A stretch of 64,000 nucleotides of DNA, taken from assembly GCA_964360785.1 (NCBI GenBank), contig CAYHXX010000001.1, positions 346,907 to 410,906 of the forward strand. Reading direction: 5' to 3'. Numbering within the stretch: the stretch's first letter is position 1; every line of letters starts with the position of its first letter. Below are positions 9,672 to 32,856 of the stretch, in pieces. The notes under the pieces were generated by a model. That model saw nothing but the letters and a program-made list of their open reading frames with translations, was not told the DNA's origin and did no database searches. A program made the position numbers and the translations under genes. This stretch comes from an uncultured Gammaproteobacteria bacterium (GTDB lineage: Bacteria; Patescibacteriota; Microgenomatia; Woykebacterales; RBG-16-39-9b).

Positions 9672-11930
9672 ATGCCTATAAGCACTCTAGCGTCGATAAC
9701 CACCTTTATTGTTTCCATCTTCCTTGGACTATTCATAATTTATAGAGATCCAAAAAAGTTAACTAATGTAACATTTGGAGCTTTCACAATTTGTGTGGCA
9801 TTTTGGGTGATTACTAATTTCTTTACAGACATAGCCAAAACAACAGATGTAGCCACTTTCTGGGCAAGAATGACATTAGCTGCTCCAGCCCTCATGCCCT
9901 TTCTTTTGTTAATGTTCTCTAAGGTTTTCCCTAGGCAAGAGGCTACCCTAAATAAAGGTTTCTGGTTTTTACTCCTTACCCCAGGTCTTATCACTTTAGT
10001 ACTCACCCCAACAGTATTAAACATTGAAAAAGTAAGCTTTACAGCCACTGGACAAGAACTTGTTGTTGGCCCCTTATATACACCCTTTTTCATTTATTTT
10101 GCCATATATTTAATTGGTACATTCATTAATCTATTTAAAAAGTTTAAAAGATCAACTTCTTTGGAAAAACTGCAAATCCAATATCTTATTTTCGGGTTGG
10201 TAACAGCTTCAATCTTCGCCTTGCTATTAAACGTAATTCTACCTATATTTGGATTATCCAACCTGGTAAGTTTGGGTGCTTTTTCCTCTGTCTTCATTGT
10301 TGGATCAACAGCTTATGCAATAGTGAAGCATAGATTACTTGATATCAGACTAGTTGTCGCTAGAACGGTAGCTTATTCATTATTGCTAGTTATACTTTCT
10401 GTTTTCTACATAGGTTCTACAGTTCTTCTTACAAACTTTCTGTTCAAAACAACTACATCTAGTGCCCAACTATTGCTCTACTCTGCCCTCACATTAGTTG
10501 TTGCCTTTACTTTTCAACCTTTGCGCTCATTCCTTGAAAAATCTACTGACAAAGTATTTTTTAAAGGTGATTATGATTTTAATAATTTACTTTCCCAACT
10601 CACAAAAATCATTGCTGAAACAATATTGATTGATGATATCGCCAATAGACTACTGACAAAACTTCTAGCAGACATGCGTATTACTCGAGGAGCATTTGTT
10701 CTAACAGATCAAGGTAAGATTTTCGTTTCCGAGACTCAAGGTTACAAAGAAGAACCGAAGTTTTCCGAAAAAGATGTTTTTAGCTTACAAGCTCTCGATA
10801 AGAATCTGATCTTCGAGGAGCTAGAAGAGGGTTCTGGTAAAGAGTTGATGCGGAAGCTGAATGTTACCGCAGTAATCCCTTTGAAAACCCAAGTTGACCA
10901 TGTTGGGCTTTTGTTGCTTGGAGAAAAAGCTTCGGGAGAGATTTACTCCGCCAAAGACATCAAGGTCCTGGAAATTTTCTCGCCTGAGGCAGCTATTTCT
11001 TTTGAAAATGCCAAAAGTGTTGAAAAAATCCGCCGCTTCAACATTACTCTTAAAGAACAGGTCGATCGAGCCACTCGCGAGCTGCGGAGCGCCAATGAAC
11101 AGCTCAAAGACCTGGATCGGCTCAAGGATGAGTTCCTTTCGATTGCCAGCCATGACCTGCGTACCCCAATGACCGCGATCAAGGGCTATCTCTGGATGGC
11201 AATCAATGGTCGAGCTGGAAAAATCGAGAACCAAGCCCTCAAGCGCTATCTCGATATCTCTTACTCCAGTGCTGAGCGTATGATCCAACTGATCAATGAT
11301 CTGCTCAATGTCTCGCGTATCAAAGCCGGGCGAGTCCAGATGATCTTTGAAGAGATCGATATCAAGACAATAATAGACCAGGTTTTTGCCGAGATTATGT
11401 CCAAAGTTACTGAGAAAAATATCTTGCTAAAATATGAAGGTTCTGCCAACCTTCCCAAACTTATCCTCGACAAGCAACGGTTCCCAGAAATATTGCAAAA
11501 CTTGATCGGCAACGCGCTTAAGTTTACCCCTGAGAAAGGCAAAATCACGGTCACTGCCAAAAGGTCAAAGGAAGAAGGTTTCATCGAGGTTGCAGTAACT
11601 GATACTGGAGTTGGGCTCTCCAAGGAAGATGCCGGTAAGCTTTTTGAAAAATACGGCCGTATTGAAACTTCCTACACCAAAGCCAAGGAAAGTGGTGGTA
11701 CTGGTCTAGGATTGTACATCACCAAAACCTATGTGGAACTTCATGGTGGCAAGATCTGGGTTGAGAGTGAAGAAGGCAAAGGTACGAGCTTTATCTTCAC
11801 TCTTCATGTGGCAGACCCCGAAATGATCAAAAAAATGAATTCCGATACCCAGCCAAAACAAGTTGCTCCAAACGTACCACAAACAAACAACAGCACTGTC
11901 AAAGAAATGGTTACCTCTTCCACCACATGA
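9672..11930 (+). CDS. Sensor histidine kinase with polytopic membrane N-domain
   Basis: HisKA H-box FLSIASHDLRTPMTAIKGY. HATPase_c motifs (NLIGNALKFT, DTGVGL, GGTGLGL). Confidence 0.8.
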   Translation: MPISTLASITTFIVSIFLGLFIIYRDPKKLTNVTFGAFTICVAFWVITNFFTDIAKTTDVATFWARMTLAAPALMPFLLLMFSKVFPRQEATLNKGFWFLLLTPGLITLVLTPTVLNIEKVSFTATGQELVVGPLYTPFFIYFAIYLIGTFINLFKKFKRSTSLEKLQIQYLIFGLVTASIFALLLNVILPIFGLSNLVSLGAFSSVFIVGSTAYAIVKHRLLDIRLVVARTVAYSLLLVILSVFYIGSTVLLTNFLFKTTTSSAQLLLYSALTLVVAFTFQPLRSFLEKSTDKVFFKGDYDFNNLLSQLTKIIAETILIDDIANRLLTKLLADMRITRGAFVLTDQGKIFVSETQGYKEEPKFSEKDVFSLQALDKNLIFEELEEGSGKELMRKLNVTAVIPLKTQVDHVGLLLLGEKASGEIYSAKDIKVLEIFSPEAAISFENAKSVEKIRRFNITLKEQVDRATRELRSANEQLKDLDRLKDEFLSIASHDLRTPMTAIKGYLWMAINGRAGKIENQALKRYLDISYSSAERMIQLINDLLNVSRIKAGRVQMIFEEIDIKTIIDQVFAEIMSKVTEKNILLKYEGSANLPKLILDKQRFPEILQNLIGNALKFTPEKGKITVTAKRSKEEGFIEVAVTDTGVGLSKEDAGKLFEKYGRIETSYTKAKESGGTGLGLYITKTYVELHGGKIWVESEEGKGTSFIFTLHVADPEMIKKMNSDTQPKQVAPNVPQTNNSTVKEMVTSSTT

Positions 11931-12211
11931 AAATCGCTTCAATAGACACAACTGTCGCCAAAATTGCCAAAGTCTCAATACTTGAAAACGCTATTTTGCT
12001 AACTTCCGCTGAGAAAGATTCCCCCTTAGTCGCTCTAAGAGAAGCACTGGGAAAATCAGGTCTAAAGCTCTCTGATATTGATAAATTTGAGTCCAACCCC
12101 GGCCCAGGGTCTTACACTGGTATCCGGGTCGGAGCAGCGGTCTGCAACAGCTTGAATTGGGTATTGGGAAAAGAGGCACAGTTGATCGAACCTATTTACG
12201 AAGGATCTTAA
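11927..12211 (+). CDS. tsaB: TsaB (YeaZ)-like N-terminal domain protein, truncated (94 aa)
   Basis: GPGSYTGIRVGAAV matches the TsaB GPGSFTGLRIG motif. Only about 94 aa. Confidence 0.5.
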   Translation: MKIASIDTTVAKIAKVSILENAILLTSAEKDSPLVALREALGKSGLKLSDIDKFESNPGPGSYTGIRVGAAVCNSLNWVLGKEAQLIEPIYEGS

Positions 12212-13047
12212 CCTCTTGCTAAAAGTAGCAGGATAACAACTCCCAACACTATTCTATAGATCACAAAGACATTGAAATTATTACTTCTTACGTAGGTGAG
12301 CAATACTTTGATTGCAAACCAGCCAGAAACTGCAGCTGATAGGAACCCTACTATAAAAACGCTGCTATTGCCCCCAAAGTGAGCGGTAATATCATAAAGT
12401 TTCAGTAAGCTTGCTCCGAGTATTGCTGGAGTCGAGAGCAGAAACGAAAATCTGGTCGCCGTCTCTCGATCCAAATTTCGAAACAAACCAGCGCTGATAG
12501 TGATACCACTACGGGAAACTCCGGGAAAGAGAGCTGCTGCTTGCGCAATCCCGACCAGAATCGAATCAACGAGATTGATACTGGTCTCGGAACGAGCCTT
12601 CTTACTCTGTTTGTCAATCCAATAAAGAAAAAGTCCAAAAATTATTAAGTTCGCTGCCACCAGCAAATTGCTTCGAAACGCACTTTCAATTGTTTTTTCT
12701 AAAACCAAACCGGCAAAAGCCGCAGGCACCGATCCGATACCCAGAAGAATTAACATTCTCGAGTTGGACTCTTTCCAGAGTGCTTTCCAACCTTTTGGTA
12801 AAGTCTTAAAGAAACTATTAAAAAGTTTTAGCCAATCTTTCCAGAAAAAGCCAACAACTGCTACAGTTGTCCCAAGATGCAAGGCAACATCAAAAGTCAG
12901 GCTGTTTACTAGACCCTCCCAACCCAAGACATTGGGAATGATTATTAAGTGCCCGGAAGAGGAGATCGGCAGAAATTCGCTCGCCCCCTGAACTATCCCC
13001 AGAACCAAAGCCTGAAAAATTTCAACATTAAACATAGGCGTACACAA
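12208..13047 (-). CDS. uppP: Undecaprenyl-diphosphatase UppP (BacA)
   Basis: GASEFLPISSSGHL and FPGVSRSGITISAG signature motifs. About 8 TM helices. Confidence 0.85.
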   Translation of the reverse strand: MCTPMFNVEIFQALVLGIVQGASEFLPISSSGHLIIIPNVLGWEGLVNSLTFDVALHLGTTVAVVGFFWKDWLKLFNSFFKTLPKGWKALWKESNSRMLILLGIGSVPAAFAGLVLEKTIESAFRSNLLVAANLIIFGLFLYWIDKQSKKARSETSINLVDSILVGIAQAAALFPGVSRSGITISAGLFRNLDRETATRFSFLLSTPAILGASLLKLYDITAHFGGNSSVFIVGFLSAAVSGWFAIKVLLTYVRSNNFNVFVIYRIVLGVVILLLLARG

Positions 13048-17965: not shown

Positions 17966-18808
17966 TTATTCCTCCAATTTTTCGACTGGGACTCCAGCCC
18001 ACTTTGCTAAATCCGGAAGTTTTTGAACACCTTCAATCTTCTTTATTACTTCACCATCCTTTTCGATCAAAAAAGTTGGTGTGTGTTCAATCCCACGGTC
18101 CAGACACAACTGTGGATTGCCGTTTGGACCTTTAGGGTGGCATTCCACACTATTGAGTTTTTTGTACGCTGGACCAATCATTTGCTCTTGCTTCTTGCAG
18201 TTACTACAAGTGTAGGACTTGTAATAAACTAGTCCTTTTTCGTTGAGTGCTTCTACAAAGGGTGTGTAGTCTTTCTTGGCTACAATACTAGTCTGAGCAA
18301 AGTAAGTCACTCCAGCAACCACTACCCCAGCGATGATAACAGGCATGGCCATCCGGAAAACAACAGTGAACTTCTCCTTCATCGCAAAAAACGAAGTCAC
18401 AGCAATAAGAATCATCAAGATCTTGCTAGTCTCACACAGGATACAGAAAGCTTTGATAACAAAAGCTTCAAGAGCCGTAAAATAATACGATGGGATCAAA
18501 ACAAAGACAGTCAGATAAAAGATCGTCTGATAAAAAGCTTTGGTTCTTTGGAAAATAGCTAGCAAGAAAGTTAAACCAAAATACCCCAAACCCATTATCG
18601 ATATTGGAATTCCGAAAATTTCAGAATATATGCTAGTAGTGACTGCATCGCAGGAAAGTTTTTCGTTGATGTCACACACTGAAGATGCTTCGGCGAAATG
18701 GATATATGTGAGATACACCATTATCCCAAAACCAACCAGAGAAAGTATTGAAATTAGAAGTCTTGGAAATTTTGTGAGAGATTCTTTTTTTGTCTCGTCC
18801 GAACTCAT
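17966..18808 (-). CDS. Vitamin K epoxide reductase (VKOR) fused to thioredoxin-like domain
   Basis: VKOR TM core with CDINEKLSCD and CILCE Cys pairs. C-terminal Trx-like CSNC motif. Confidence 0.7.
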   Translation of the reverse strand: MSSDETKKESLTKFPRLLISILSLVGFGIMVYLTYIHFAEASSVCDINEKLSCDAVTTSIYSEIFGIPISIMGLGYFGLTFLLAIFQRTKAFYQTIFYLTVFVLIPSYYFTALEAFVIKAFCILCETSKILMILIAVTSFFAMKEKFTVVFRMAMPVIIAGVVVAGVTYFAQTSIVAKKDYTPFVEALNEKGLVYYKSYTCSNCKKQEQMIGPAYKKLNSVECHPKGPNGNPQLCLDRGIEHTPTFLIEKDGEVIKKIEGVQKLPDLAKWAGVPVEKLEE

Positions 18809-21236: not shown

Positions 21237-22136
21237 TTATTTACAGTAGTCGCTGGTTTTACCGGCAGTACCATCTGCCGCCGGTAAACTTTTGACCTTA
21301 GCGGCATCGACACTTGGCAGAAGGTCAAACCAACACAAGGCGCGCTGAGCCAAAAGTGGATCATGGGCAGGATTGGCGGACCATGTAGCATCTTGTGAAG
21401 CCTGATTTTTGGTTTTGAGGTCGTAAACACCAAAGTCAAAGAATACATTCAATCCGCCTTTTGTTACACCAACAGCAATGGCGATTGTTTCTCCCGCAGT
21501 AACAGAAACCTGGGGATTAATATTTGTTGTCTTGGAATCGCCTTCCATCGCGGCCGGGAAGGTGTCGGCAATTTTCTGGTACTTGGGGTCAAGAACAAGC
21601 AGATGGCCAAGCCGGTACATGATTCCACAAGGTGCGATGAAATCAAATGTATATTGAATCTCCCCACCGACTAAATAACGGCTTCCGTTCACTATGACTG
21701 CGTCCATTGGAGCAGTGACAGTCACGGTGCTACTCTTGGCATTGTCAAAGCGAAAACCACCGTGCGGTTTATAATTCCCTCCCCTCTCTTGCCCAGGATA
21801 GAGGATTGAGGTGACATTGGTAAGATCAGTTGGAGTCTTCAACACTGGGCTTGGACAGGCTGGCAACGTACCACTGGCTTGCCAACCGTTTTCTATCGGC
21901 ATCCAAGTTACTTGTTCTGTCTGAGAAGAGGTTTTAGCCGAAGAAGAGGCTGTCGGCGAAGTTGTTGTTTTGTTTGTCAAACCGTTTTTTGTTGCCTCCT
22001 GACCATTAACAAAATACCAGATTCCCGCGACGGCAATAATAGTACCAATCAAGATCAAACCAACTGCTGCAAAAACTTTGTGTGTGTAAATATTTGGGTT
22101 TTTGGCCAAAGGATTAGGAACAGGTTTATCGAGCAT
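21237..22136 (-). CDS. N-terminally anchored secreted protein, paralog A of MLDxPVPNPLAKNPN family
   Basis: First about 45 aa are near-identical to 23788..24510 (MLD[KQ]PVPNPLAKNPN..THKV.AAVGL.LIGTI..VAGIWYFV). Divergent C-terminal globular domain. Confidence 0.5.
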   Translation of the reverse strand: MLDKPVPNPLAKNPNIYTHKVFAAVGLILIGTIIAVAGIWYFVNGQEATKNGLTNKTTTSPTASSSAKTSSQTEQVTWMPIENGWQASGTLPACPSPVLKTPTDLTNVTSILYPGQERGGNYKPHGGFRFDNAKSSTVTVTAPMDAVIVNGSRYLVGGEIQYTFDFIAPCGIMYRLGHLLVLDPKYQKIADTFPAAMEGDSKTTNINPQVSVTAGETIAIAVGVTKGGLNVFFDFGVYDLKTKNQASQDATWSANPAHDPLLAQRALCWFDLLPSVDAAKVKSLPAADGTAGKTSDYCK

Positions 22137-22143
22137 TGAATTA

Positions 22144-22172
22144 ATTATGAAGGTTTACTGAAATCTTGTCAA
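22144..22172 (-). promoter_or_regulatory. Promoter TTGACA-17-CATAAT placed 7 nt before ATG (leaderless) for paralog A
   Basis: Minus-strand TTGACA (22167-22172) and CATAAT (22144-22149). Identical architecture to the 24518..24546 promoter. Confidence 0.45.
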
Positions 22173-22177
22173 AATAG

Positions 22178-23266
22178 CTAATTTTTACTTCCAACCGCTT
22201 GACTGATACTCACAAAACCATCCTTCTTTAACAGTTCCACCAACCCGCTGTTAATATTCTTTATCGTCATTGGTCCACCATAAATTAAACCAGTTGCCAG
22301 CTCAATCAAAGAAGCACCCAAACAGATTTTTTCGTAAGCATCTGTGGCGGTAAAAACGCCACCCAAGCCGATGATTGGATACTTACCCGCAGTCTTTTGG
22401 TAAACTTTTCTGATCATTTGATTCGAAAGTTCCTTCAACGGTCGCCCCGACAACCCGCCAGGAAGATGAGCAAGTTCCGAAGTTTTAATATGTTTCAGTC
22501 CACTTCGATTTTTAGTTAAATTAGAAATGATAAACCCTTTAATAAAGTGGTACTTCATTACTGTTTCTAAAACTTGATATAAACTTTCATCACTCAAATC
22601 GGGCTTTAATTTTAAAACTACTGGTTTAGTGACTTTATTTTTGTTAATTATTTTTAGCAACTGATTGAGCATTTCTGGGTTTTCACAAAACATTTGTCCA
22701 TCGCCGGTATTCGGACAGCTGATGTTGATGTTGACAATGTCTGCCAAAGGTTGAAGCTTAACAAATGACTTCTTGTAGTCTTTAACAGAATCTTCCCCCT
22801 TAATAGTTGGATCATTTGTTTTTGCGATGTTTATAACTAACGGTACAAAGCGTTTTTGAGAAGCGATTCGTTTTTTGAGAACAGTCGCACCCTCGTTTTT
22901 TAAACCGTAATTGACTATCAAGGCCCCCTCTTTTATCAAACGGGTGTTCCAAGGCCGTCTATTACCCTGATAAGGTTTAGCAGTTATTGAACCCACTTCT
23001 GTAAACCCAAATCCAACTGAGGGAAGTATTTGAATCAATCTACAACCTTTATCAAAACCGCCGGCAATGCCAATGGGGTTTTTAAATTTTACGCCAAAAA
23101 CTTCAGTTTCTAGGGAGGGGTGTTCAAAATGACAAAACTTATCAACTAGAGTTCTTCCCAATTCGCTCTTACCAAGTGTCATCCCAATACTACTGACCAG
23201 TTCGTGAGCAATATCAGGATGCATTTTAAACAAAACTGGCTTTGCAAACCTTTGATAATAGTCCAT
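22178..23266 (-). CDS. pyrD: Dihydroorotate dehydrogenase (quinone-type, class 2)
   Basis: GFDKG and NISCPNT active-site region. N-terminal membrane-association segment. Confidence 0.8.
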   Translation of the reverse strand: MDYYQRFAKPVLFKMHPDIAHELVSSIGMTLGKSELGRTLVDKFCHFEHPSLETEVFGVKFKNPIGIAGGFDKGCRLIQILPSVGFGFTEVGSITAKPYQGNRRPWNTRLIKEGALIVNYGLKNEGATVLKKRIASQKRFVPLVINIAKTNDPTIKGEDSVKDYKKSFVKLQPLADIVNINISCPNTGDGQMFCENPEMLNQLLKIINKNKVTKPVVLKLKPDLSDESLYQVLETVMKYHFIKGFIISNLTKNRSGLKHIKTSELAHLPGGLSGRPLKELSNQMIRKVYQKTAGKYPIIGLGGVFTATDAYEKICLGASLIELATGLIYGGPMTIKNINSGLVELLKKDGFVSISQAVGSKN

Positions 23267-23323
23267 TAGCCCTAATTCCCGCCTACTTTAGATTGGTAAA
23301 GTTTATTTTCGTAATAAAGAAGA

Positions 23324-23614
23324 TTAATCATTGATAAATAAACCATGAAGCAAGATAAAAAGAACAGTACATACACCTATAAATATGGAAAGATAAACCA
23401 AAACGGAGCGATCTTTGTTTTTGCTTACTGCTATTATTCCAGTGATTAAAGCGATAATGCTTGCCGGAAATGAGATAGCTACTGTCACATCCCACCAGGA
23501 ATCGTCAAATTTAAGTATTTTAAGTATCAAAACAAGTACACAAGAAGTGGTAACTGCAAGCAGGAAAAAAGCGCTCAACCCTACAGACCATTTACCTAAG
23601 GTAGTTTTTGGCAT
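23324..23614 (-). CDS. Small membrane protein (3 TM), hypothetical
   Basis: 96 aa, almost entirely hydrophobic helices. Confidence 0.4.
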   Translation of the reverse strand: MPKTTLGKWSVGLSAFFLLAVTTSCVLVLILKILKFDDSWWDVTVAISFPASIIALITGIIAVSKNKDRSVLVYLSIFIGVCTVLFILLHGLFIND

Positions 23615-23787
23615 CTAAAATCACCACCTTTCGAAGCTACTTTACGCCTGCAGGAGTCTTAAAGTCAATATCTAAGATAAATAAGAGAAGTTTGTAGAGT
23701 AAACTCACAAAGATAAACCAGACCAACAAAAAACTAGCCTATAAGCTAGCTGCTGTACCAAACAAAACAATTTACTGACAAAAAGAA

Positions 23788-24510
23788 TTAGTTATTACCC
23801 CCACTCCCAGAATTACTCTCGACTTCTGTCTCGGTTTTGCCGTCATTATCGTCGTCCTGGTCTTCTTTATCTGCTACCCCATCCTTATCCTTATCATCCT
23901 CAAAGGTTTGAACTGAGTTTGAATCCGCGCTGTCCTTATCGTCCTTGTCCTCAACCCCATCGTTATCTCTATCCTCGTCATCTTTGTCAGAATCATCCTT
24001 GATACTGTCGTTATCATCATCGTCATCTATTTTATCGGAAATATTGTCGTTGTCATGGTCAAGCTCGTGGCTATCAGCAGTATCCACAAGACCATCCTCA
24101 TCGTCATCCAGATCGTCCATGTCTCCCAAACCATCGTTGTCGTGATCAAACAAAGCTTGGTCCCCACTTTTATCCTCCAAACCATCCTCATCGTCATCAC
24201 TATCCTGGTCATCGTCTAGGCTGTCGTTATCGTGGTCCTTTGGTTTAGCGTCATTAACATCAAGTACTCCATCGTTGTCGTCATCTTTATCCACGGAATC
24301 TTTGATCCCGTCATTATCATTATCAAAAGCCGAAAGTACCTTTACTTGATTTGAAGTGCCCTCAGTTCCAGAATTATCCCCAACGAAATACCAGATACCA
24401 GCAACAATGGCGATTGTACCAATTAGAACTAATCCAACAGCGGCAACTACTTTGTGAGTAAAGAAATTAGGATTTTTAGCCAAAGGATTTGGAACAGGCT
24501 GATCGAGCAT
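23788..24510 (-). CDS. N-terminally anchored highly acidic Asp-rich repeat protein (TSP3/calcium-binding-like), paralog B
   Basis: Same N-terminus as 21237..22136. C-terminus is iterated DxDxDGxxDxxD-like repeats (DNDGIKDSVDKDDDNDGVLDVNDAK...). Confidence 0.55.
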   Translation of the reverse strand: MLDQPVPNPLAKNPNFFTHKVVAAVGLVLIGTIAIVAGIWYFVGDNSGTEGTSNQVKVLSAFDNDNDGIKDSVDKDDDNDGVLDVNDAKPKDHDNDSLDDDQDSDDDEDGLEDKSGDQALFDHDNDGLGDMDDLDDDEDGLVDTADSHELDHDNDNISDKIDDDDDNDSIKDDSDKDDEDRDNDGVEDKDDKDSADSNSVQTFEDDKDKDGVADKEDQDDDNDGKTETEVESNSGSGGNN

Positions 24511-24517
24511 TGAAGTA

Positions 24518-24546
24518 ATTATGAGGGTTTATTCTAGTTTTGTCAA
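24518..24546 (-). promoter_or_regulatory. Promoter TTGACA-17-CATAAT placed 7 nt before ATG (leaderless) for paralog B
   Basis: Minus-strand TTGACA (24541-24546) and CATAAT (24518-24523). The upstream 40 nt is conserved with the paralog A upstream region. Confidence 0.45.
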
Positions 24547-24715: not shown

Positions 24716-25630
24716 TTGACCACGCTGAAAATATATTGGATAATAATTATAATGTCCGATACTTTACCAGATCAACCGACTCCTTTAGTAAATCCACAAA
24801 CCGTTCCAAATACGAACTCATCTGTTGTTGAAAACACATCAGGAACAGATACTAACGCACCCCTCCCTCTTGGCGTAGCTGGGTGGGGCTGGGGACCCTT
24901 CTTTTTAACTGTCTGGTGGGGAATATTCAATAATGTATGGATCAGCCTAATCACATTTATACCCTTGATTGGAAGTATTATGCCTGTTGTTCTTGGTATA
25001 AAGGGTCGAGAATTGGCTTGGAAAGCGAAGAGGTGGAAAGATGTTGACGATTTTAACAGAGTACAGCGTATTTGGAGTGTAACAGGACTTGCCTTTTTCA
25101 TTGTTGGGATAATAATAAACATCGTGCTTGCAATTATTTTCCTACCAATGGCTTTTAATTTTTATTTTGGTTACACAACAAATATTAATGCCGCTAGTAA
25201 AGCTTACTCAAATAAGCAGTATGATTTGCAGTTGGAAAAAGCAACATTGTCATTAGAGTTTGCCAGAAACAATCAGACTAAGTCCGTCAGTTATTATTGG
25301 AAAGGCCTTGCAGAATACAAACTTGGAGATATTGAATCTGCAGAAAAAGACGAGAAATTAGCCTTAAGTTTAAATCCATATTCCTCCGGACCTTATGTTA
25401 CTCTTTCGGCAATAGAAGGAGACAAGGGTAATCACCAACAAGCTTTGAATCTGGGTAAAAAATGTGTAGAAATAGATCCTAATTGGGGTTGGTGTCACAA
25501 TGCAGTGGGGGTATCATTGATTCAATTGGGCAGTAAAGAAGAAGGTATACAAGAATTAGAAAAGGCAGTTTCGCTAGATCCTAATAACCCTGTCTTTGCG
25601 GAAAATCTGACGTTGGCAAAATCCAACTAA
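24716..25630 (+). CDS. Membrane-anchored TPR-repeat protein
   Basis: Two TM segments then TPR-like repeats (YYWKGLAEYKLGDIESAEKD..., ALNLGKKCVEIDPNWGW...). Confidence 0.55.
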   Translation: MTTLKIYWIIIIMSDTLPDQPTPLVNPQTVPNTNSSVVENTSGTDTNAPLPLGVAGWGWGPFFLTVWWGIFNNVWISLITFIPLIGSIMPVVLGIKGRELAWKAKRWKDVDDFNRVQRIWSVTGLAFFIVGIIINIVLAIIFLPMAFNFYFGYTTNINAASKAYSNKQYDLQLEKATLSLEFARNNQTKSVSYYWKGLAEYKLGDIESAEKDEKLALSLNPYSSGPYVTLSAIEGDKGNHQQALNLGKKCVEIDPNWGWCHNAVGVSLIQLGSKEEGIQELEKAVSLDPNNPVFAENLTLAKSN

Positions 25631-25707
25631 TAAGTTTGGAAACAACTACCTCAGCTTATTAAAGCATAATATTGACACGATTTTCTCCCTAAAGGATAAT
25701 TAACTTA

Positions 25708-26241
25708 ATGCCTGAAGAAAATATTCAACAACCGATTCCCCAACAAATACCTCAACCAATAATGCAACCCCAACCAGTCGCCACTTCACACTCTAAAGTC
25801 GGTTATATTTTTGGTGGTTTGTCTTTCATACCGCTTTTTGGAGTTTTATTCGGAATAATCGCAATTATTATTGGTATATTCACAAAATCAAAACTCTCCA
25901 TTTTCTTGGGAGTAGGAGGCATATTATTTTCAGTAATTCTATATGGAAGCCTTTTCTATTTTGGCTTTGTGGCAAAATCTGGCCCTTTTGCTGATATTAA
26001 AGTACAACTAACACAACAAATCATTAATCAGGATAAAGCGCAAATACTTGCCTATAAAACTAATAACGGAAAGTTGCCAGATAGCTTAAGTAATTTACCA
26101 AGAGAATATATGATTAATCCAAGCGATGCTTGGTTAAAACCAATTAATTACAAAGTTAATGGGGATGGAACTTTTGAATTGAGAAGTGATGGACCAGATG
26201 GAATACCAAATAATAGTGACGATATTCTTCCTAATAACTAG
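25708..26241 (+). CDS. Membrane protein with C-terminal type II secretion GspG/pseudopilin-like domain
   Basis: Gln/Pro-rich N-terminus, two TM helices, then ILAYKTNNGKLPDSLSNL...YKVNGDGTFELRSDGPDGIPNNSDDI resembling the T2SS_G domain. No prepilin leader. Confidence 0.4.
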   Translation: MPEENIQQPIPQQIPQPIMQPQPVATSHSKVGYIFGGLSFIPLFGVLFGIIAIIIGIFTKSKLSIFLGVGGILFSVILYGSLFYFGFVAKSGPFADIKVQLTQQIINQDKAQILAYKTNNGKLPDSLSNLPREYMINPSDAWLKPINYKVNGDGTFELRSDGPDGIPNNSDDILPNN

Positions 26242-26384
26242 ATAATATTTCCTGTTACAACAACCTAATATAGGAACTGGTGACCCCGGCGGGAGACAGT
26301 CCGATCCGATCGGACTAATCATTAAGAAATGAGCGAACCCAAGTGGGTTCAAACCAATGGCCAGAGATCATAAAAACAAAAAGA

Positions 26385-26414
26385 CAGGCAAAGATTGCCT
26401 GCTTTCTGTTTTGG
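26385..26414. terminator. Bidirectional intrinsic terminator
   Basis: Stem CAGGCAA/TTGCCTG with loop AGA, flanked by an A-run upstream and CTTTCTGTTTT downstream. Downstream of the XRE gene on the minus strand. Confidence 0.5.
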
Positions 26415-26499
26415 TGACCCGAACAGTACACAGTTCGAACCGGTCGTGGCTTTCTGGGACAGGATTATACAGTCTTACTGTGAAACTTCAGATCAGGAA

Positions 26500-26727
26500 C
26501 TATAAAAGTTTTGTCTTTAACACCTCTGCAATTTTGCGCAGTTTATCGTACGATGTATTTATTTCCCCACGCTCAATTCTGGCATAGTATGTGACATCCA
26601 TTCCGGATTTTTCGGCTACCTCCGCCTGAGTTAAACCAGACTTTTCTCTGGCGTCTTTTAGTTTATTGCTTAAATCTTTAGTTATTTTGTCGTTTTGATC
26701 GCTATTCATATGTGTATAGTATAACAC
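26500..26727 (-). CDS. XRE-family helix-turn-helix transcriptional regulator
   Basis: GLTQAEVAEKSGMDVTYYARIERGE is a canonical HTH_XRE. 75 aa. Confidence 0.75.
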   Translation of the reverse strand: MLYYTHMNSDQNDKITKDLSNKLKDAREKSGLTQAEVAEKSGMDVTYYARIERGEINTSYDKLRKIAEVLKTKLL

Positions 26728-26812
26728 TTAAGGAAAAAAGTGACTTATTCTTATTTTTATTTTTATAACTCATTTCACTAAAATTCGTAAACCGTTTTGA
26801 ATTAAATAGCCC

Positions 26813-26842
26813 TTGACTTTTGACTATAGGTTTATGTATACT
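26813..26842 (+). promoter_or_regulatory. Promoter TTGACT-18-TATACT with tandem TTGAC motif upstream of the 230-aa cargo gene
   Basis: TTGACT 26813-26818 and TATACT 26837-26842. RBS AAGGAG 26874-26879. Divergent from the XRE gene. Confidence 0.45.
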
Positions 26843-26884
26843 TTGCCTCAATAAATACTGACCCATCAAGCCAAAGGAGCTGCC

Positions 26885-27577
26885 ATGCAAAGGATTCGCT
26901 TGTACTGCGAAGGTATCAAGCCCGTAATGTTCGACCCAGCGTCTGAAGCATTCTTGGACAAACTGGGTACTCGTGTTCGACAACAACCAAGAACTGATAT
27001 CAATGTCGAAGAAGAGGCCAGAAGCAGAGTTCTCGTTACTGAAAGAGATTACCTGTATTTCCCGCTGGGCTACCTCTTCTCGTGCTTGGTTGAAGCGGGA
27101 AGGTTCGTCAAATACGAAGGGAAGATGAGCCTGTCAACTGCCGATTCTACTCGTCTCACCATGATCCTCACTCTCGAAGGCGAACAGGTAATTCTGGGGT
27201 TACGGGATGGTAATGGCACTTTCCAGCCACTATCCCCCGATGAATGGACCGTGGATAAGCGACGTGGGGTGAACAAAGTCACCAAAGCCCCTGTTCGTAT
27301 CATTCGTCCCAAGATTGCTCGTTGGGGTTTCGAGGTGGAAGCGGTTTTCGATAACGATCGATTCGCTCTCAGTAAACTGATCGAGCTCTTTCGGGTGGCA
27401 GGTTTGGGGATTGGAATCGGAAGCTTCCGGGCAGAAAATAAAGGCGAGTTCGGAATGTTCGAACTCAAGGAAGTAAAGATCCTCGAGGAATGGAAGCCAG
27501 AGGAGACGGTGAAGGTCGTCAGCTTGGTCGAGACCAAACCGACTACGAAACGATCAAGGTCAAAGGCTAAGCAATGA
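26885..27577 (+). CDS. Hypothetical 230-aa protein with C-terminal glycine-rich loop (RAMP-like?), GC-rich cargo gene
   Basis: Strong RBS and promoter. GC-rich with coherent codon usage. GLGIGIGSFRAENKGEFG glycine-rich loop. No catalytic motif recognised. Confidence 0.5.
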   Translation: MQRIRLYCEGIKPVMFDPASEAFLDKLGTRVRQQPRTDINVEEEARSRVLVTERDYLYFPLGYLFSCLVEAGRFVKYEGKMSLSTADSTRLTMILTLEGEQVILGLRDGNGTFQPLSPDEWTVDKRRGVNKVTKAPVRIIRPKIARWGFEVEAVFDNDRFALSKLIELFRVAGLGIGIGSFRAENKGEFGMFELKEVKILEEWKPEETVKVVSLVETKPTTKRSRSKAKQ

Positions 27578-27707
27578 CGACAACATGAGCAAGGATGCTC
27601 ATACTGAAGGCAGACCCAGATTGGGAGCTGTGACTCTGCACTGCACTCCTGTGCTTTGCTTTGTTCTCTCTAGCTATCCATTCTGTTGCAGTCTGTAGCA
27701 CAGGGCT

Positions 27708-27760
27708 GGGGGTTCTTCGACTTCGGTTGTCGAACCCCTGCCATCTTTTTTATACTTTTT
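27708..27760 (+). terminator. Intrinsic terminator after the 230-aa gene
   Basis: GGGGGTTCTTCGAC / GTCGAACCCC stem with loop TTCGGTT, then TGCCATCTTTTTT. Confidence 0.4.
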
Positions 27761-27819
27761 CCTACTGTTCAATTTTGTAATCAGCACTTTTCAGCTGAAA
27801 TAGTTCAAGGAGAAGGATC

Positions 27820-29628
27820 GTGAACCAAGGGGAACATCTTGGACCGCTCACCTTCGAGGAGCTGTCCTCTGCCTTTCCAAGGCAGTATCGGCAAATGCAC
27901 CCCAACCAGAGGGAGGCATTCAGACGAATTGCCCAAGCAAGGGGTTCGGTTACCATTGAAGCCCCAACCGGGAGTGGCAAAACCGCAATTGGCTACACTG
28001 TTCTGCGGGCGCTTGCCGCCAGAGGTGAAGGGCCTCTGTTCTATGTCGTGCCCAATAGGGCATTGGTCGGGCAGGTGCACACTTTGCACCGCGACCTCGT
28101 TGAGGTGTACGGACGGCACGAGTATGAGTGTCTCTACTTCCCGGAGCAAAATTACCGGGCGGATGAGATACCGTGCTCTCTGCTAACCGACTGTGCTCAC
28201 CGGGTTGACCAGGAAACTGGGCAAACCTTTGGACGGGGTCGACGCTGCCCGTATTACTGGGCAAAGTATCAGGCGAAGCAGAGTCAGATCGTTGTCTGCA
28301 CCATGGCTTTTTACCTCTTTACCCAACTGTTCAGTCGGGAATGGGGGGAACCTGCTGGCCTGGTGATCGATGAGACCCACCAAATTGCCAAGGTGTTCCG
28401 CAATGCCCTGAGTTTCGAGATCTCGGACTACCACCTTGAAAGTGCGATTCGGCTTCTCGAGCCGTTTGCCCCAGAAGGTGCGGCTGGTCTCGAGGTGTTT
28501 CTTGAGACGATGAACCGGATCGTGAGAATCAAACGGTCCAACACGCCAAGTTTGCTTGAAGACACCGAGATTGAAGAACTGCTGATGACGCTGATGCTTA
28601 TCGACCACAACAGGTTGCGGCAAGGGTTGTCAACGGCAGTTACGTCGGGTTCCATTGATGTCAGTCAGCACGTGGAGGTGCTCACCCGAGTCGACCGGAT
28701 CGTGCGAGATCTTGTACGTTACCTGCGTGCGTTTGAGTTCTCGCTACCGACTGAAGATCGTCACCCTCTTAACTACACCTTCGCCTATTACGACAGGGAG
28801 CAGGTAGTGGGTAGGCGAGTCAACAACCGGCTTGTGGTCAAAGCCTATCACGTTGCTCCGCTGGTAAGGAGCCTGTTGTCTTCGAGGATGACACTTGCCT
28901 ACTCGGCGACAATTGGGGATGAGAACATCTTTGCACTCGAGACAGGAATTCGTCAGCCGACCTACCACTTTGGCTCGGACTTCCCCAACGAGAATACCCG
29001 GGTGTTCATGCCAACCAATACACCGAACCTGGCAATGCAGGCTCGAGGTCGGAGGGATCTGGCTAACACCATCCGAAGGATAGCTCGGGCTTGCCGACGT
29101 TTCAATGACGCTGGGCATCGTTGCCTGGTCGTGGTGGTTTCTGATGCGGAGAGACAGAGGTTCCTGCGAATGGCGGCCGAAGAAGGTGTTGACGTCGTTT
29201 CTTATGGCGACGGTGTTAGCGCACGTGCTGCTGCTGAAAGGTTCCGTGATCGTGGCGAGGGTGGTGTGTTGTGTGGGACAGTGGCCAACTACGGGGAAGG
29301 GATTGACCTACCCGATGGTAAGGCCCCGGTGATTTTCTTCCTCCGCCCGGCGTACCCCTCTCCGAATGATCCGGCAACTCAGTTCGAGGAGCGCCGTTTT
29401 GGAAGCAGGCGCTGGTCGGTTTGGAACTGGCGTGTGATGATGGAGGCTCTCCAGGTCCGTGGTCGCAACGTGAGAAGCACAACGGATTTGGGTGTGACCT
29501 TCTTCATGTCGCAGCAGTTCCGCAGATTCCTCTACGGATCCCTGCCAAACTGGCTGCAGCCTGCCTATAGGGGAGATCTCACCTTTGACGAAGGAGTTGA
29601 GGAGGCGTTGGAGGTGTTGGAAAGATAG
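27820..29628 (+). CDS. XPD/DinG/Rad3-family Fe-S ATP-dependent DNA helicase (GC-rich cargo gene)
   Basis: Walker A EAPTGSGKT. Four Cys between motifs I and II (ECLYF, PCSLL, TDCAH, RRCPYY with the CPY signature). DExH box VIDETHQ. C-terminal helicase_C_2-like VANYGEGIDLPDG. GTG start with AAGGAG RBS. Confidence 0.7.
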   Translation: MNQGEHLGPLTFEELSSAFPRQYRQMHPNQREAFRRIAQARGSVTIEAPTGSGKTAIGYTVLRALAARGEGPLFYVVPNRALVGQVHTLHRDLVEVYGRHEYECLYFPEQNYRADEIPCSLLTDCAHRVDQETGQTFGRGRRCPYYWAKYQAKQSQIVVCTMAFYLFTQLFSREWGEPAGLVIDETHQIAKVFRNALSFEISDYHLESAIRLLEPFAPEGAAGLEVFLETMNRIVRIKRSNTPSLLEDTEIEELLMTLMLIDHNRLRQGLSTAVTSGSIDVSQHVEVLTRVDRIVRDLVRYLRAFEFSLPTEDRHPLNYTFAYYDREQVVGRRVNNRLVVKAYHVAPLVRSLLSSRMTLAYSATIGDENIFALETGIRQPTYHFGSDFPNENTRVFMPTNTPNLAMQARGRRDLANTIRRIARACRRFNDAGHRCLVVVVSDAERQRFLRMAAEEGVDVVSYGDGVSARAAAERFRDRGEGGVLCGTVANYGEGIDLPDGKAPVIFFLRPAYPSPNDPATQFEERRFGSRRWSVWNWRVMMEALQVRGRNVRSTTDLGVTFFMSQQFRRFLYGSLPNWLQPAYRGDLTFDEGVEEALEVLER

Positions 29629-29757
29629 GGCGATCGTGAACCCAGGGTTATAGCTACTCTCTTGAGTACGCCGTAACGACCCTGGGTTTTTCATTTCTAG
29701 ATTTACCAGCTGAAAGGCTGGTTTTTTGTTGATTAAATCCTAAAGCGCAGGGTAATA

Positions 29758-30639
29758 TTACTCTTTTCTGACTATTGTCCAGATATTATCACTACCCAAC
29801 CCTTCTTCGGTTGCTTGCTTTAAAGTTGTTAGTAAAAACGTTATTTCTTCGAGGTCGTAAGAACTGTCAAGTTGTTTTTTAATGTATTTGCCAATCTGGT
29901 TTAATTTTTGTTGGTTGGGAAAAATTAGCAGAAGAATAGGGAATTTTCTGTCCAAGCCGCTAAATCTATGTTTCCCCCCTTCACTTTGATTAAATTTAAT
30001 ATATTGGTCTACTTTATACCTGAGAGCATATCTTGGAACACCTGGGTCAAAGAGTTGCAGAAAGTAAGTTTGAGAGCTATTGTCTTCTTGATCAGGATTA
30101 ATTAATTTTTCAAAGTAAATATCTGGAATAATTTCCTTGATCTTTTCAAAATCGTCTTCTTTGTATAAATCCATCTTTTCAGTTATCCAAAGTTCTGTTT
30201 TTGTAGCGAACTGATACTCTATGTTAGTACTTTTCTTTTGTTTTTCCTTGAGCTGGATATAGAAGTCAAAGAGGCTGATGCAGTGATCAATAAAAGTTTG
30301 GGAGGCGTGTTTATCCTCATAGAACTTTTTAATAAGCTTAAAGTCCAGTTTTTCATTATCTGCCTGGTAAGCTTCACCCTTTTCAAAACGTGCCCATAAG
30401 ATGCCGTTATTCGCCAGGTAATAGATGGCAGGTTTGGTATTTTCGAGTAGCTTGTGGGAATATATCCTGCCTAAATAACCTTTTTCCACTAAATCTTTAA
30501 GCCAGACGTTAATTCTTTTTGGATCCTTGTGGTCAAGAATCCTTTGTATTTGTTTCCGGTTAATAAACCGAAACCTGTAAACAAGATCAACTATCTCTTT
30601 TTGTTTTTCAGTTATCTCGGGACGTTCTTTGTAGTTCAT
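29758..30639 (-). CDS. Replication-relaxation family protein (winged-helix N-domain)
   Basis: N-terminus ITEKQKEIVDLVYRFRFINRKQIQRIL matches the replication-relaxation (PF13814-like) pattern. Sits beside the palindromic ori-like site. Confidence 0.45.
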   Translation of the reverse strand: MNYKERPEITEKQKEIVDLVYRFRFINRKQIQRILDHKDPKRINVWLKDLVEKGYLGRIYSHKLLENTKPAIYYLANNGILWARFEKGEAYQADNEKLDFKLIKKFYEDKHASQTFIDHCISLFDFYIQLKEKQKKSTNIEYQFATKTELWITEKMDLYKEDDFEKIKEIIPDIYFEKLINPDQEDNSSQTYFLQLFDPGVPRYALRYKVDQYIKFNQSEGGKHRFSGLDRKFPILLLIFPNQQKLNQIGKYIKKQLDSSYDLEEITFLLTTLKQATEEGLGSDNIWTIVRKE

Positions 30640-30849
30640 AAGATCATTCCAGTTTATTAATAGTTATTTAATTGGCAGATTTCTAGATTTAGGACAGGAG
30701 GTTTATTAGTTGGGCAGGGAAACTTAAAGGAGCAGAGGTTTAGGGGATTATACACATTTACTCAGCAACATTACTACTTCTCTTCCTTTTACCTTGTAAA
30801 AGGGTAAAGACCGGAAATTAAAATTCCTTTAATAAACCTAATATAAGCT

Positions 30850-30904
30850 CGTACGTAGCCACGACCCGTGTCCTAGACAGTTAGGACACAGCCCATGCGT
30901 ACGT
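30850..30904. promoter_or_regulatory. 55-bp imperfect palindrome; putative recombination/oriT/operator site
   Basis: CGTACGT-(11)-GTGTCCTA-(6)-TAGGACAC-(8)-CGTACGT. Followed by AT-rich iterons, with ATATGTATAT at 30938 and 30961. Confidence 0.45.
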
Positions 30905-30986
30905 GCGAACTATTTTTACTAATTGACAACTATACACATATGTATATATAATATATACAGATATGTATATGTAACTTGCCTAACTC

Positions 30987-31316
30987 TTGGATATGAAAGT
31001 ACTAGATTCGGAACAATTGGAAATTAGACCTAAACAACGAGAATTTAAACTCCTAGAACAACAAGATGTCTACGAAAACCTCAATCAACATCTTTCCGAA
31101 CAAGAAAAGGAACAAAGAATCATTCTCGAAGCTCGAGATATCTTAGGAGAAGCTGCGGAAAACCTAACTGATGAGCAAATTTGCAATTTAGTAAGTGAGA
31201 TTCAATATCTGGTTGATACTTGGTTAGAGGAATTTGAAACAAAGGTTTATGGGGGTAAGACCTTAAGTGAGTTACTACACCTAAATTATCATGAACACAC
31301 CGTTTCCAGCAAATAA
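30987..31316 (+). CDS. Hypothetical acidic protein upstream of and overlapping the recombinase (possible directionality/accessory factor)
   Basis: TTG start. Overlaps the recombinase start by 26 nt. No motif recognised. Confidence 0.35.
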   Translation: MDMKVLDSEQLEIRPKQREFKLLEQQDVYENLNQHLSEQEKEQRIILEARDILGEAAENLTDEQICNLVSEIQYLVDTWLEEFETKVYGGKTLSELLHLNYHEHTVSSK

Positions 31317-32838
31317 TATTTCAGAACCAAGAAAAGCTGTTATCTATATCCGAGTTTCTTCTGAGGAACAAGTAGAAAACTTTTCTTTGGGAACACAGGA
31401 GGAAATATGCCGCAGAGATGCGAAATATAAAGGTTATGAAATAGCGGAAGTATTTAAGGAAGAGGGTCGCTCAGCAAAAACTATTATTGGAAGGCCAGTG
31501 CTACTTGAAATGCTCGACTTTTGCAGAAAAAACAAGAAAGATCTTCAAGCGGTTTATGTTTACCGACTTGATAGATTATCCAGGCAAACTTCCGATTACC
31601 TAGCAATAAGAAAAAGGCTTGCCGACTATAATATCGCTATTCTTTCCGCAACTGAACCAACAGGAAATTCACCAACAGAAAAATTACTTGAAACTGTTCT
31701 GGCAAGTTTTGCTCAACACGATAATGACGTGCGAAGTGAAAGAACGAAAAACGGTATGCGAGCAAGGTTTTTATCAGGCCTGATTACAAACAAGTTAACC
31801 GCTGGGTATGTTAATCAAGGTGGCTATGCTATTAAAGATTCGGAAAAGTTTGAAACTATTAAAAAAGCTTGGGACTTAATGGCAACGGGAACAAAGAGTT
31901 TAAGAGAAATAAGAACTATTTTAAGTTGCTGGGGAGTTGAGATAAAACCGCACGCGATTCACGCAATGTTCCACAATAAGTTCTACATGGGCATATTAAG
32001 CTCTCCAAAATACCCAGAGGAGGTTCGTGGTCAGCACTCTCCTATGGTTACTGAAGAGCAGTTCTATAAAGTACAAGCAATTTTGGACGGTCGCGATACA
32101 AACAGGTTGGTTATGCCACGGAAAAGCAGAGATAACAAAGACTTTCCTCTGAGAAGGATCGTTAGATGCGGTAGATGTGGCACTCCGTTTACTGGAGCCA
32201 AAACCAAAGGGAGAAGTGAATACTATTCATATTATTTTTGTCGAAAAAGATGTGTTAATACTTCGGTGCCAGTTGAAACTTTAGACAAGTCATTAGGAAA
32301 CCTGCTCCAAATTCTTAACCCTACTGAAAACGGAATAAAACTTTACTGCAACGCCCTTATCAAAACCTACAACAAGAAAATGTTTCGACTTGAGAAAACT
32401 AAGAATGGAGCTGACGAGGAGATCAAGAAGCTTTTTGGACTCCGACAGACTTTAGTTGAAAAAAACCTAGCTGGAACTTTTTCAGATGAGATCTTTAAAG
32501 AACAGAACGCCGTTATTGAAGAAAAACTAATAGCTGCTCAAGCCTCAAAAAATGACGCTCTCATTGATAAGTACGATATCGCCGCAATTGTAGCCTTTAT
32601 CGAAACTAAACTAGCCGATATTGCCCAAACCTATTTTAGCTCGACTCTTAGCCAAGCTCGCTGCCTTCTCGGTTCGATATTTCTCTCGGGATTGAGTTGG
32701 GACTATCCTGGTTGTTCGAACCGCGGTATTAGCCCGATATATCAAGGTATTATTGATGTTGAAAGTAAGGGTGTTCCCTTTGGTGACCCCGGCGGGATTC
32801 GAACCCGCGATCTCTTGGATGAAAACCAAGTATCCTAA
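31291..32838 (+). CDS. Large serine recombinase (integrase)
   Basis: Resolvase catalytic domain AVIYIRVSSEEQ, recombinase domain and zinc ribbon CGRCGTPF...CRKRC. The ORF reads through into the tRNA-Glu gene, so the last about 19 aa are tRNA-encoded. Confidence 0.8.
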   Translation: MNTPFPANNISEPRKAVIYIRVSSEEQVENFSLGTQEEICRRDAKYKGYEIAEVFKEEGRSAKTIIGRPVLLEMLDFCRKNKKDLQAVYVYRLDRLSRQTSDYLAIRKRLADYNIAILSATEPTGNSPTEKLLETVLASFAQHDNDVRSERTKNGMRARFLSGLITNKLTAGYVNQGGYAIKDSEKFETIKKAWDLMATGTKSLREIRTILSCWGVEIKPHAIHAMFHNKFYMGILSSPKYPEEVRGQHSPMVTEEQFYKVQAILDGRDTNRLVMPRKSRDNKDFPLRRIVRCGRCGTPFTGAKTKGRSEYYSYYFCRKRCVNTSVPVETLDKSLGNLLQILNPTENGIKLYCNALIKTYNKKMFRLEKTKNGADEEIKKLFGLRQTLVEKNLAGTFSDEIFKEQNAVIEEKLIAAQASKNDALIDKYDIAAIVAFIETKLADIAQTYFSSTLSQARCLLGSIFLSGLSWDYPGCSNRGISPIYQGIIDVESKGVPFGDPGGIRTRDLLDENQVS

Positions 32839-32856
32839 CCACTAGACGACGGGGCC
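32781..32856 (-). tRNA. tRNA-Glu (anticodon UUC), CCA encoded
   Basis: Folds as a cloverleaf: acceptor GGCCCCG/CGGGGTC, anticodon stem CTTGG/CCAAG, loop TTTTCAT giving anticodon TTC, T-loop TTCGAAT. Similar to E. coli tRNA-Glu. Confidence 0.85.

Follow-up and report, generated by a model that had tools for sequence, protein, structure and literature searches.

Two paralogous genes of a groundwater Patescibacterium place a shared promoter, predicted anchor and stalk before unrelated ectodomains

The window analysed here is a 64-kilobase (kb) stretch (64,000 nucleotides, nt) of contig CAYHXX010000001.1 (GenBank assembly GCA_964360785.1, positions 346,907 to 410,906 of the forward strand), which is deposited as an uncultured Gammaproteobacteria bacterium and placed by GTDB in the Patescibacteriota. 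Its G+C content is 42%, it matches contigs from groundwater of the Hainich well H52 (0.1-µm fraction), and its proteins have named relatives under the labels Patescibacteria, Saccharimonadales, Berkelbacteria or Woykebacteria. Two of its genes, hereafter A and B, lie 2.2 kb apart in the same orientation and begin with the same promoter and the same N-terminal module. Both open reading frames (ORFs) are confirmed as initially described, and their parts are the following (lengths in amino acids, aa).

21237..22136, minus strand: gene A, ORF of 299 aa
22008..22136, minus strand: gene A codons 1-43, shared N-terminal module, tail MLDKPVPNPLAKNPNIYTHK followed by the 23-residue hydrophobic helix VFAAVGLILIGTIIAVAGIWYFV
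21906..22007, minus strand: gene A residues 44-77, disordered Ser/Thr-rich stalk, with the family motif ..SPTASSSAKTSS.. kept to about residue 67
21240..21905, minus strand: gene A residues 78-299, globular ectodomain with a LytM/peptidase-M23 fold and four invariant Cys, lacking HxxxD and HxH
23788..24510, minus strand: gene B, ORF of 240 aa
24382..24510, minus strand: gene B codons 1-43, shared N-terminal module, MLDQPVPNPLAKNPNFFTHK followed by a predicted transmembrane helix
23857..24324, minus strand: gene B residues 63-218, polyacidic ectodomain with 11 DxDxD[GSN]xxD loops

The N-termini of A and B align with 40 identities over 54 positions (BLASTP, E 6e-24) and the rest of the two proteins gives no significant alignment. 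Within residues 1-43, 36 are identical (84%), as are 32 of the 40 nt upstream of the start codons (80%). The initial annotation had called both regions near-identical, a wording that is slightly generous for a similarity that is real, and had set the shared protein part at about 45 aa, whereas the family alignment carries it past that point and into the stalk. There, both proteins retain the motif (K)V-S/L-T/S-S-S-A, as VKVLSA in B (reaching approximately residue 62) and as SPTASSSA in A (approximately residue 67), and they diverge directly after it, where the foreign ectodomains are joined. At the DNA level, homology starts around position -38 (TTTTGACAA) and no alignment is found farther upstream; the unit common to both genes reaches from the -35 element through the whole stalk. 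A six-frame tblastn search of the window gave no third copy of the module.

The module has the features of a signal anchor, with one N-terminal helix of at least 20 residues and the more positive flank on the N-terminal side. In gene A, AlphaFold2 predicts the helix at residues 17-47, of which residues 21-43 form the hydrophobic stretch of 23, and the stalk has a predicted local distance difference test score (pLDDT) of 47-69 at residues 41-70, falling below 50 at 54-57 and 62-64. The tail carries three Lys and one Asp, and gene B has an acidic flank behind the helix. Across the family, this long hydrophobic stretch shows no conserved small-x-small site. Since homologues of gene A carry prepilin-like N-termini, a prepilin identity of the module was considered and rejected, the type IV prepilin motif of PF07963 (a leader up to Gly, then F/M-T/S-L-I-E and a helix) being absent in A and B. 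Searches of Pfam and NCBIfam with A, B and family members gave no named N-terminal domain or sorting family for the module; sub-threshold hits over the helix and stalk (DUF6556, T7SS_Rv3446c, SAG1386) were dismissed as composition or transmembrane matches.

This module reaches well beyond the two genes. An exhaustive HMMER search with a profile of the two N-termini against 1.84 billion representative proteins (50% identity clusters) matched 89 clusters at E ≤ 1e-3 and 68 at E ≤ 1e-10, mostly proteins of 200-260 aa. Across the family, the tail reads LDxxVPNPLAKNPNxxTHK and the stalk ends in KVSTSSAK; about a quarter of the listed members (21 of 89) have an extension of 17-20 aa (MPEE...) before the motif. 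In 75 members, P7, P9, H19, K20, V21, F22, A23 and G26, together with K61, T64 and S66 of the stalk, are conserved at 90% or more, and the ectodomains of these proteins share a mean identity of about 30%. Two unrelated neighbours of gene B (24752..25630 and 25708..26241, both on the plus strand) also open with Pro/Asn/Gln-rich tails, MSDTLPDQPTPLVNPQ and MPEENIQQPIPQQ, that resemble the MPEE-extended members; such beginnings may be a habit of leaderless genes in this genome.

Genome searches likewise returned several copies. Among species representatives, six loci were found in four genomes, with 2-3 copies in some (two loci in one genome and two on a single contig of another), and all matches were labelled Patescibacteria save one contig labelled 'uncultured Gammaproteobacteria'. 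Contig CAYIWY010000003.1 holds three module genes in 13 kb (loci L006, 1566..3678, and L003), with AbrB/Doc-like and RelE-like toxin-antitoxin pairs standing between them; one of the three has TAA at codon 4. The Gammaproteobacteria label of this contig looks wrong, as its genes are of Patescibacteria type. Further copies come from the same sample as the window, on locus L012: the 253-aa protein P0238 (also among the matches to gene B), a 259-aa member and a 75-aa anchor-plus-stalk fragment.

L012, 5280..6762 and 11566..12345: module copies in a dcw (cell wall and division) cluster, between ftsW and murD

In this cluster, the 75-aa anchor-plus-stalk ORF is followed 5 nt later by P0238, a 159-aa PsbP-like protein with a different anchor is encoded nearby, and the MPEE-extended 259-aa member lies 5 kb from P0238 behind TATAAT-7-ATG. 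The L012 copies appear to belong to the same genome as the window, which very probably holds at least five copies of the module. The proposal of a family is thus borne out by the 89 clusters, by the six loci in four genomes and by at least three more genes apparently in this genome, and with these family members in L012 and in other genomes the similarity is not limited to A and B as a recent duplication would have it.

What the module carries is less varied than the pair A and B would suggest. Once the anchor was removed, 77 members retained 80 aa or more of C-terminal sequence, and 69 of these fell into a single BLAST cluster. PsbP_2 (PF18933) was matched by 38 of 75 scanned members at E ≤ 0.01, some of which appear to come from the genome of the window, and by neither A nor B even at E ≤ 10. 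With these PsbP_2 proteins, about half of the scanned carriers, A and B have only the anchor and stalk in common. The outliers to the main cluster are A, B, six other proteins in five small groups, and a protein with an FtsX extracellular domain. A family described as cassette-like therefore holds as far as one anchoring module fronts different ectodomains; it does not hold as free mixing, with 69 of 77 members of one type. Our search of the available library for PsbP-like proteins in Patescibacteria, the candidate phyla radiation (CPR) or Saccharibacteria found nothing relevant.

That the ectodomains of A and B are unrelated, one globular and the other extremely acidic, is confirmed. The globular domain of gene A is modelled with a pLDDT of 89 and has the β-sheet fold of LytM, and no Pfam family matches it at E ≤ 10, Peptidase_M23 included, nor does any entry in a sequence search of the PDB. 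Compared with LytM factors and M23 enzymes, it stands at 12-17% identity, with around 100 extra residues about the core. Gene A lacks the zinc motifs HxxxD and HxH, as do 118 of 119 relatives (each occurs in 1 of the 119). It differs from the LytM factors EnvC, NlpD, DipM and SpoIIQ by an invariant set of its own (H125, H178, R118, R129, Q116 and four Cys), and it resembles non-catalytic LytM factors such as EnvC and SpoIIQ more than M23 enzymes. The ectodomain is probably a binder or regulator of the cell wall and not a canonical zinc peptidase. A fusion of VKOR and thioredoxin (disulfide-bond formation) encoded near gene A at 17966..18808 on the minus strand fits with the four invariant Cys.

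The ectodomain family of gene A comprises 1288 matches, and only the four closest (at least 79% identity) carry the module, which indicates that the module was grafted on recently in the lineage of gene A. The N-termini of the other relatives, described qualitatively, are plain anchors, lipoprotein-like or prepilin-like. Among the homologues P0005-P0120, plain anchors occur besides Cys-containing lipoprotein-like signals and prepilin-like G-F-S/T signals; PF07963 is found in P0012 and P0076, one homologue is named PilV-like by the Joint Genome Institute (JGI), and some of these proteins may be pilus-associated. The ortholog of gene A in GCA_030704665.1 lies in a different neighbourhood, so that genomic context gives no functional clue.

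In the ectodomain of gene B, Asp makes up 36% of the residues and the net charge is -66. A regular expression finds 11 overlapping matches to DxDxD[GSN]xxD, as in thrombospondin type 3 repeats, and no Pfam match was obtained for the ectodomain, TSP_3 being absent even at E ≤ 10, a result to which the composition filter may contribute. These loops of the DxDxDGxxDxxD kind are of the thrombospondin-type-3, calcium-binding type. They are known from tails of bacterial envelope proteins, whereas in gene B they make up the ectodomain in full and are not appended to another domain. Similar DHDNDG/DDDNDG repeat tails occur behind other N-terminal domains in other uncultured bacteria, one of them labelled Ca. 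Nomurabacteria. A partial ortholog of gene B, P0125, shows the same junction between module and ectodomain.

The promoters of A and B, those of two unrelated neighbours and a terminator-like element are positioned as follows.

22144..22172, minus strand: gene A promoter, TTGACA at 22167..22172, 17-nt spacer, CATAAT at 22144..22149, then 7 nt (22137..22143) to the ATG
24518..24546, minus strand: gene B promoter, TTGACA at 24541..24546, 17-nt spacer, CATAAT at 24518..24523, then 7 nt to the ATG at 24510
24716..24754, plus strand: promoter of the same layout before an unrelated neighbour, TTGACC-17-GATAAT-7-ATG, ATG at 24752, membrane tetratricopeptide-repeat protein
25672..25710, plus strand: promoter of the same layout before an unrelated neighbour, TTGACA-17-GATAAT-7-ATG, ATG at 25708, 177-aa membrane protein with a weak T2SS-G-like match
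23732..23751, minus strand: terminator-like hairpin and T-run, 37 nt past the gene B stop codon

The TTGACA-17-CATAAT-7-ATG layout proposed for both genes is an exact match. Each promoter agrees with the consensus at 11 of 12 positions, and that of gene A begins 6 nt past the stop codon of pyrD. Allowing at most one mismatch, TTGACA-N17-CATAAT occurs three times in the 64 kb against 0.46 expected, the third occurrence preceding the gene at 25708. Outside the hexamers, A and B are identical at 20 of 28 positions, whereas unrelated window promoters with this layout reach 6-12 of 28. The likeness of the pair thus reflects homology and is more than a shared closeness to consensus. The terminator-like hairpin behind gene B suggests that this gene is transcribed alone.

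As the -10 hexamer ends 7 nt before the ATG in both genes, their mRNAs should begin at the start codon or one base before it. The 13 nt upstream of the ATG (cataattaattca for A and cataattacttca for B) are devoid of a Shine-Dalgarno motif, and neither gene could start earlier in frame. Relatives in other genomes (L001, L003, L004, L006a, L006b and L007, the last being the ortholog of gene A with TTGACA-17-CATACT-7-ATG) have the same 7-nt spacing, as does the 259-aa gene, and this conservation provides good indirect evidence for transcription starting at the AUG or one base before. Leaderless genes of Actinobacteria and Deinococcus-Thermus have a -10 element at a short and fixed distance from the ATG and no Shine-Dalgarno motif. 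A leaderless transcriptome was reportedly described for M. tuberculosis by Cortes and colleagues in 2013, in a paper that PMC12641261 cites. The layout reported here is similar in these respects and in recurring at many genes; it differs by a clear TTGACA at -35 and by its Patescibacterial host, and is read from sequence alone. We found no relevant report in the searchable library on leaderless transcription in Patescibacteria, CPR or Saccharibacteria.

This layout is not a hallmark of the anchor family, since it is common in the genome. Hexamers matching TATAAT at five or more of six positions peak at the 7-nt spacing, with 8 of 73 window ORFs, including the unrelated neighbours at 24752 and 25708, against 0-3 at other spacings, and independent gene calls at two other loci place a -10-like hexamer 6-9 nt before the start of 9 of 35 genes. 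Nor does a common expression module extend to all members: with P0238 starting 5 nt after the upstream ORF, not every one has a promoter of its own.

Such 5′ ends raise the question of whether the first 20 or so codons are conserved for the sake of the mRNA, which would have to be unstructured and G-poor and in which the initially transcribed region of the promoter overlaps the coding sequence. The first 60 nt of four leaderless-type genes do fold weakly (-1.1 to -4.3 kcal/mol) with the AUG unpaired, and unrelated leaderless-type genes also start with the A/C-rich codons of Pro, Asn and Gln. However, these folding energies are no different from those of shuffled controls (z -0.2 to 0.9) and hence are not evidence on their own. 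Besides, the amino acids are retained with free variation at synonymous sites, and members with the motif 17-20 codons into the ORF conserve it just as well. We thus consider it very unlikely that the module is conserved at the mRNA level; a constraint of this kind may explain the A/C-rich, weakly folded 5′ ends but not the amino-acid motif.

The age of the relationship can be read from the 43 module codons, of which 19 are identical between A and B, 17 differ synonymously and 7 change the amino acid. Codon positions 1 and 2 are 88% identical whereas position 3 is down to 47%, which points to an old duplication with selection acting on the protein and no recent gene conversion. A recent and simple duplication of one gene followed by divergence, with no wider family, would agree with two copies standing 2.2 kb apart in the same orientation, but it is hardly credible in view of third positions near saturation, of the 89 clusters elsewhere with more copies in the same and other genomes, and of the gene A ortholog in GCA_030704665.1, around which a 20.9-kb locus holds no B-like copy.

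In the same vein, the word cassette could be taken to imply active switching, and nothing indicates it. The pilE/pilS and mycoplasma vlp/vsa genes are known switching systems for surface proteins, and the mycoplasma vlp, vsp and vsa genes form variable surface lipoprotein families whose paralogs have a conserved promoter and signal region. The family described here resembles the latter in being multi-copy and clustered and in combining a shared 5′ region and N-terminal targeting with a differing exposed part. It departs from them in a helix that looks uncleaved, in the lack of a lipobox Cys, and in that most members have one globular PsbP-like domain and no repeats; neither switching machinery, homopolymer tracts nor recent recombination was seen. 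If the repeated 5′ units were substrates of ongoing recombination, resulting in cassette switching or phase or antigenic variation, one could understand the conserved promoter and leader before divergent exposed parts, the clusters of copies, the truncated anchor-only fragment and the copy interrupted early by a stop codon; there is also a gene for a large serine recombinase at a distance of 7 kb. Against this, the direct repeats are only about 81% identical with synonymous sites saturated and no recent gene conversion, recombination between them would delete pyrD, and the genes are flanked neither by silent cassettes lacking a promoter nor by inverted repeats. The recombinase gene is next to a tRNA gene and among helicase/relaxase-type genes, as expected of a separate integrated element, and the arrangement at gene A is identical in three assemblies and one sequencing run from the same site. 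A and B do not qualify as a recombination-driven variable surface system, and ongoing switching appears extremely improbable to us.

Taken together, we consider it probable that A and B are diverged members of a lineage-specific Patescibacterial signal-anchor family in which the ectodomains have been swapped. The module would consist of a cytoplasmic tail (LDxxVPNPLAKNPNxxTHK), a transmembrane helix of about 23 residues with the N-terminus in and the C-terminus out, and a stalk ending in KVSTSSAK, which together would hold an ectodomain on the outside of the membrane. Most often, this passenger appears to be a PsbP-like domain, which would have been replaced in A by a domain of LytM/M23 fold and in B by calcium-binding-type loops. 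Both joins lie directly after the stalk, and the unit that moved would run from the -35 element to the stalk, in which case both genes inherited the same strong σ70-type promoter. A and B are best understood as rare replacements in which the whole 5′ unit came to stand before a different ectodomain. As the anchor belongs to a multi-copy family, their case is one of ordinary domain shuffling.

Several points weigh against this reading. The size of the family comes from one exhaustive search, and a word-indexed search with the module alone returned two short proteins; this method, run with a 46-aa module profile, missed even known carriers and is unsuited to a short N-terminal query. The L012 copies are assigned to the genome of the window indirectly, through the sample that they share. 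The charges flanking the helix of A, +3/-1 before and +2/-1 after, give a modest bias, and the predicted topology draws on this bias and on the helix prediction. Cleavage within the helix or the stalk may also take place. For both mRNAs, the start is a prediction from promoter geometry, and one at the seventh base after the -10 hexamer would mean a 1-nt leader and not zero. Finally, simple anchoring leaves unexplained the conservation of the tail (P7, P9, H19 and K20) and of the stalk.

This last point leads to another view of the module, as a dedicated signal for sorting, processing or partner binding, for instance in targeting to the division site or pole, cleavage and release at the stalk, or glycosylation; whatever ectodomain follows the module would share that routing. 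Conservation of tail and stalk far above the needs of a generic transmembrane anchor would be accounted for, as would a motif that is kept even behind an extension of 17-20 aa and on three or more unrelated ectodomains; the family copies in the dcw cluster and the cell-wall-type LytM fold of gene A fit as well. However, the analysis turned up neither a partner nor a processing enzyme as a candidate, Pfam and NCBIfam gave no match to a known N-terminal sorting family, and the neighbourhood is not conserved between orthologs. It is accordingly a minor and rather unlikely possibility that the tail, helix and KVSTSSAK stalk form an unrecognised Patescibacterial signal, by which a machine would direct PsbP-like, LytM-like, calcium-binding and other ectodomains. 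If true, this signal would target them to the division plane or the host-contact surface, or would release them by cleavage of the stalk.

Of the other genes around A and B, two lie between them and are outside the family, and several are parts of a probable integrated mobile element (26357..32856) beside a tRNA-Glu, which is the only hit of an RNA family scan of the window. The element also encodes a 230-aa protein of unassigned family.

22178..23266, minus strand: pyrD, dihydroorotate dehydrogenase (Pfam PF01180, E 9e-68), unrelated housekeeping gene between A and B
23324..23614, minus strand: 96-aa ORF between the paralogs, apparently a small membrane protein outside the family, with sub-threshold Pfam matches only
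26503..26727, minus strand: HTH_3 regulator of the mobile element
27820..29628, plus strand: DEAD/Helicase_C_2 helicase of the mobile element
29758..30639, minus strand: Replic_Relax protein of the mobile element
31291..32838, plus strand: large serine recombinase of the mobile element, its 3′ end overlapping the tRNA
32781..32856, minus strand: tRNA-Glu

To conclude, Pfam and NCBIfam have no entry for this feature, which is real but familiar in kind: paralogs that keep their expression and anchoring region, combined with domain shuffling. Its practical value lies in annotation and in the choice of candidate envelope proteins, and nothing about it is surprising in kind. Patescibacteria are ultrasmall and mostly uncultured, and their envelope proteins are largely unannotated; our work defines for them a family-specific N-terminal anchor and stalk that marks proteins predicted to be displayed at the surface. 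Besides, it suggests that leaderless organisation is frequent in this lineage, which bears on gene calling and on the choice of start codons. Finally, the two genes illustrate how new surface proteins may arise in reduced genomes, by grafting a unit of promoter, anchor and stalk onto other ectodomains.

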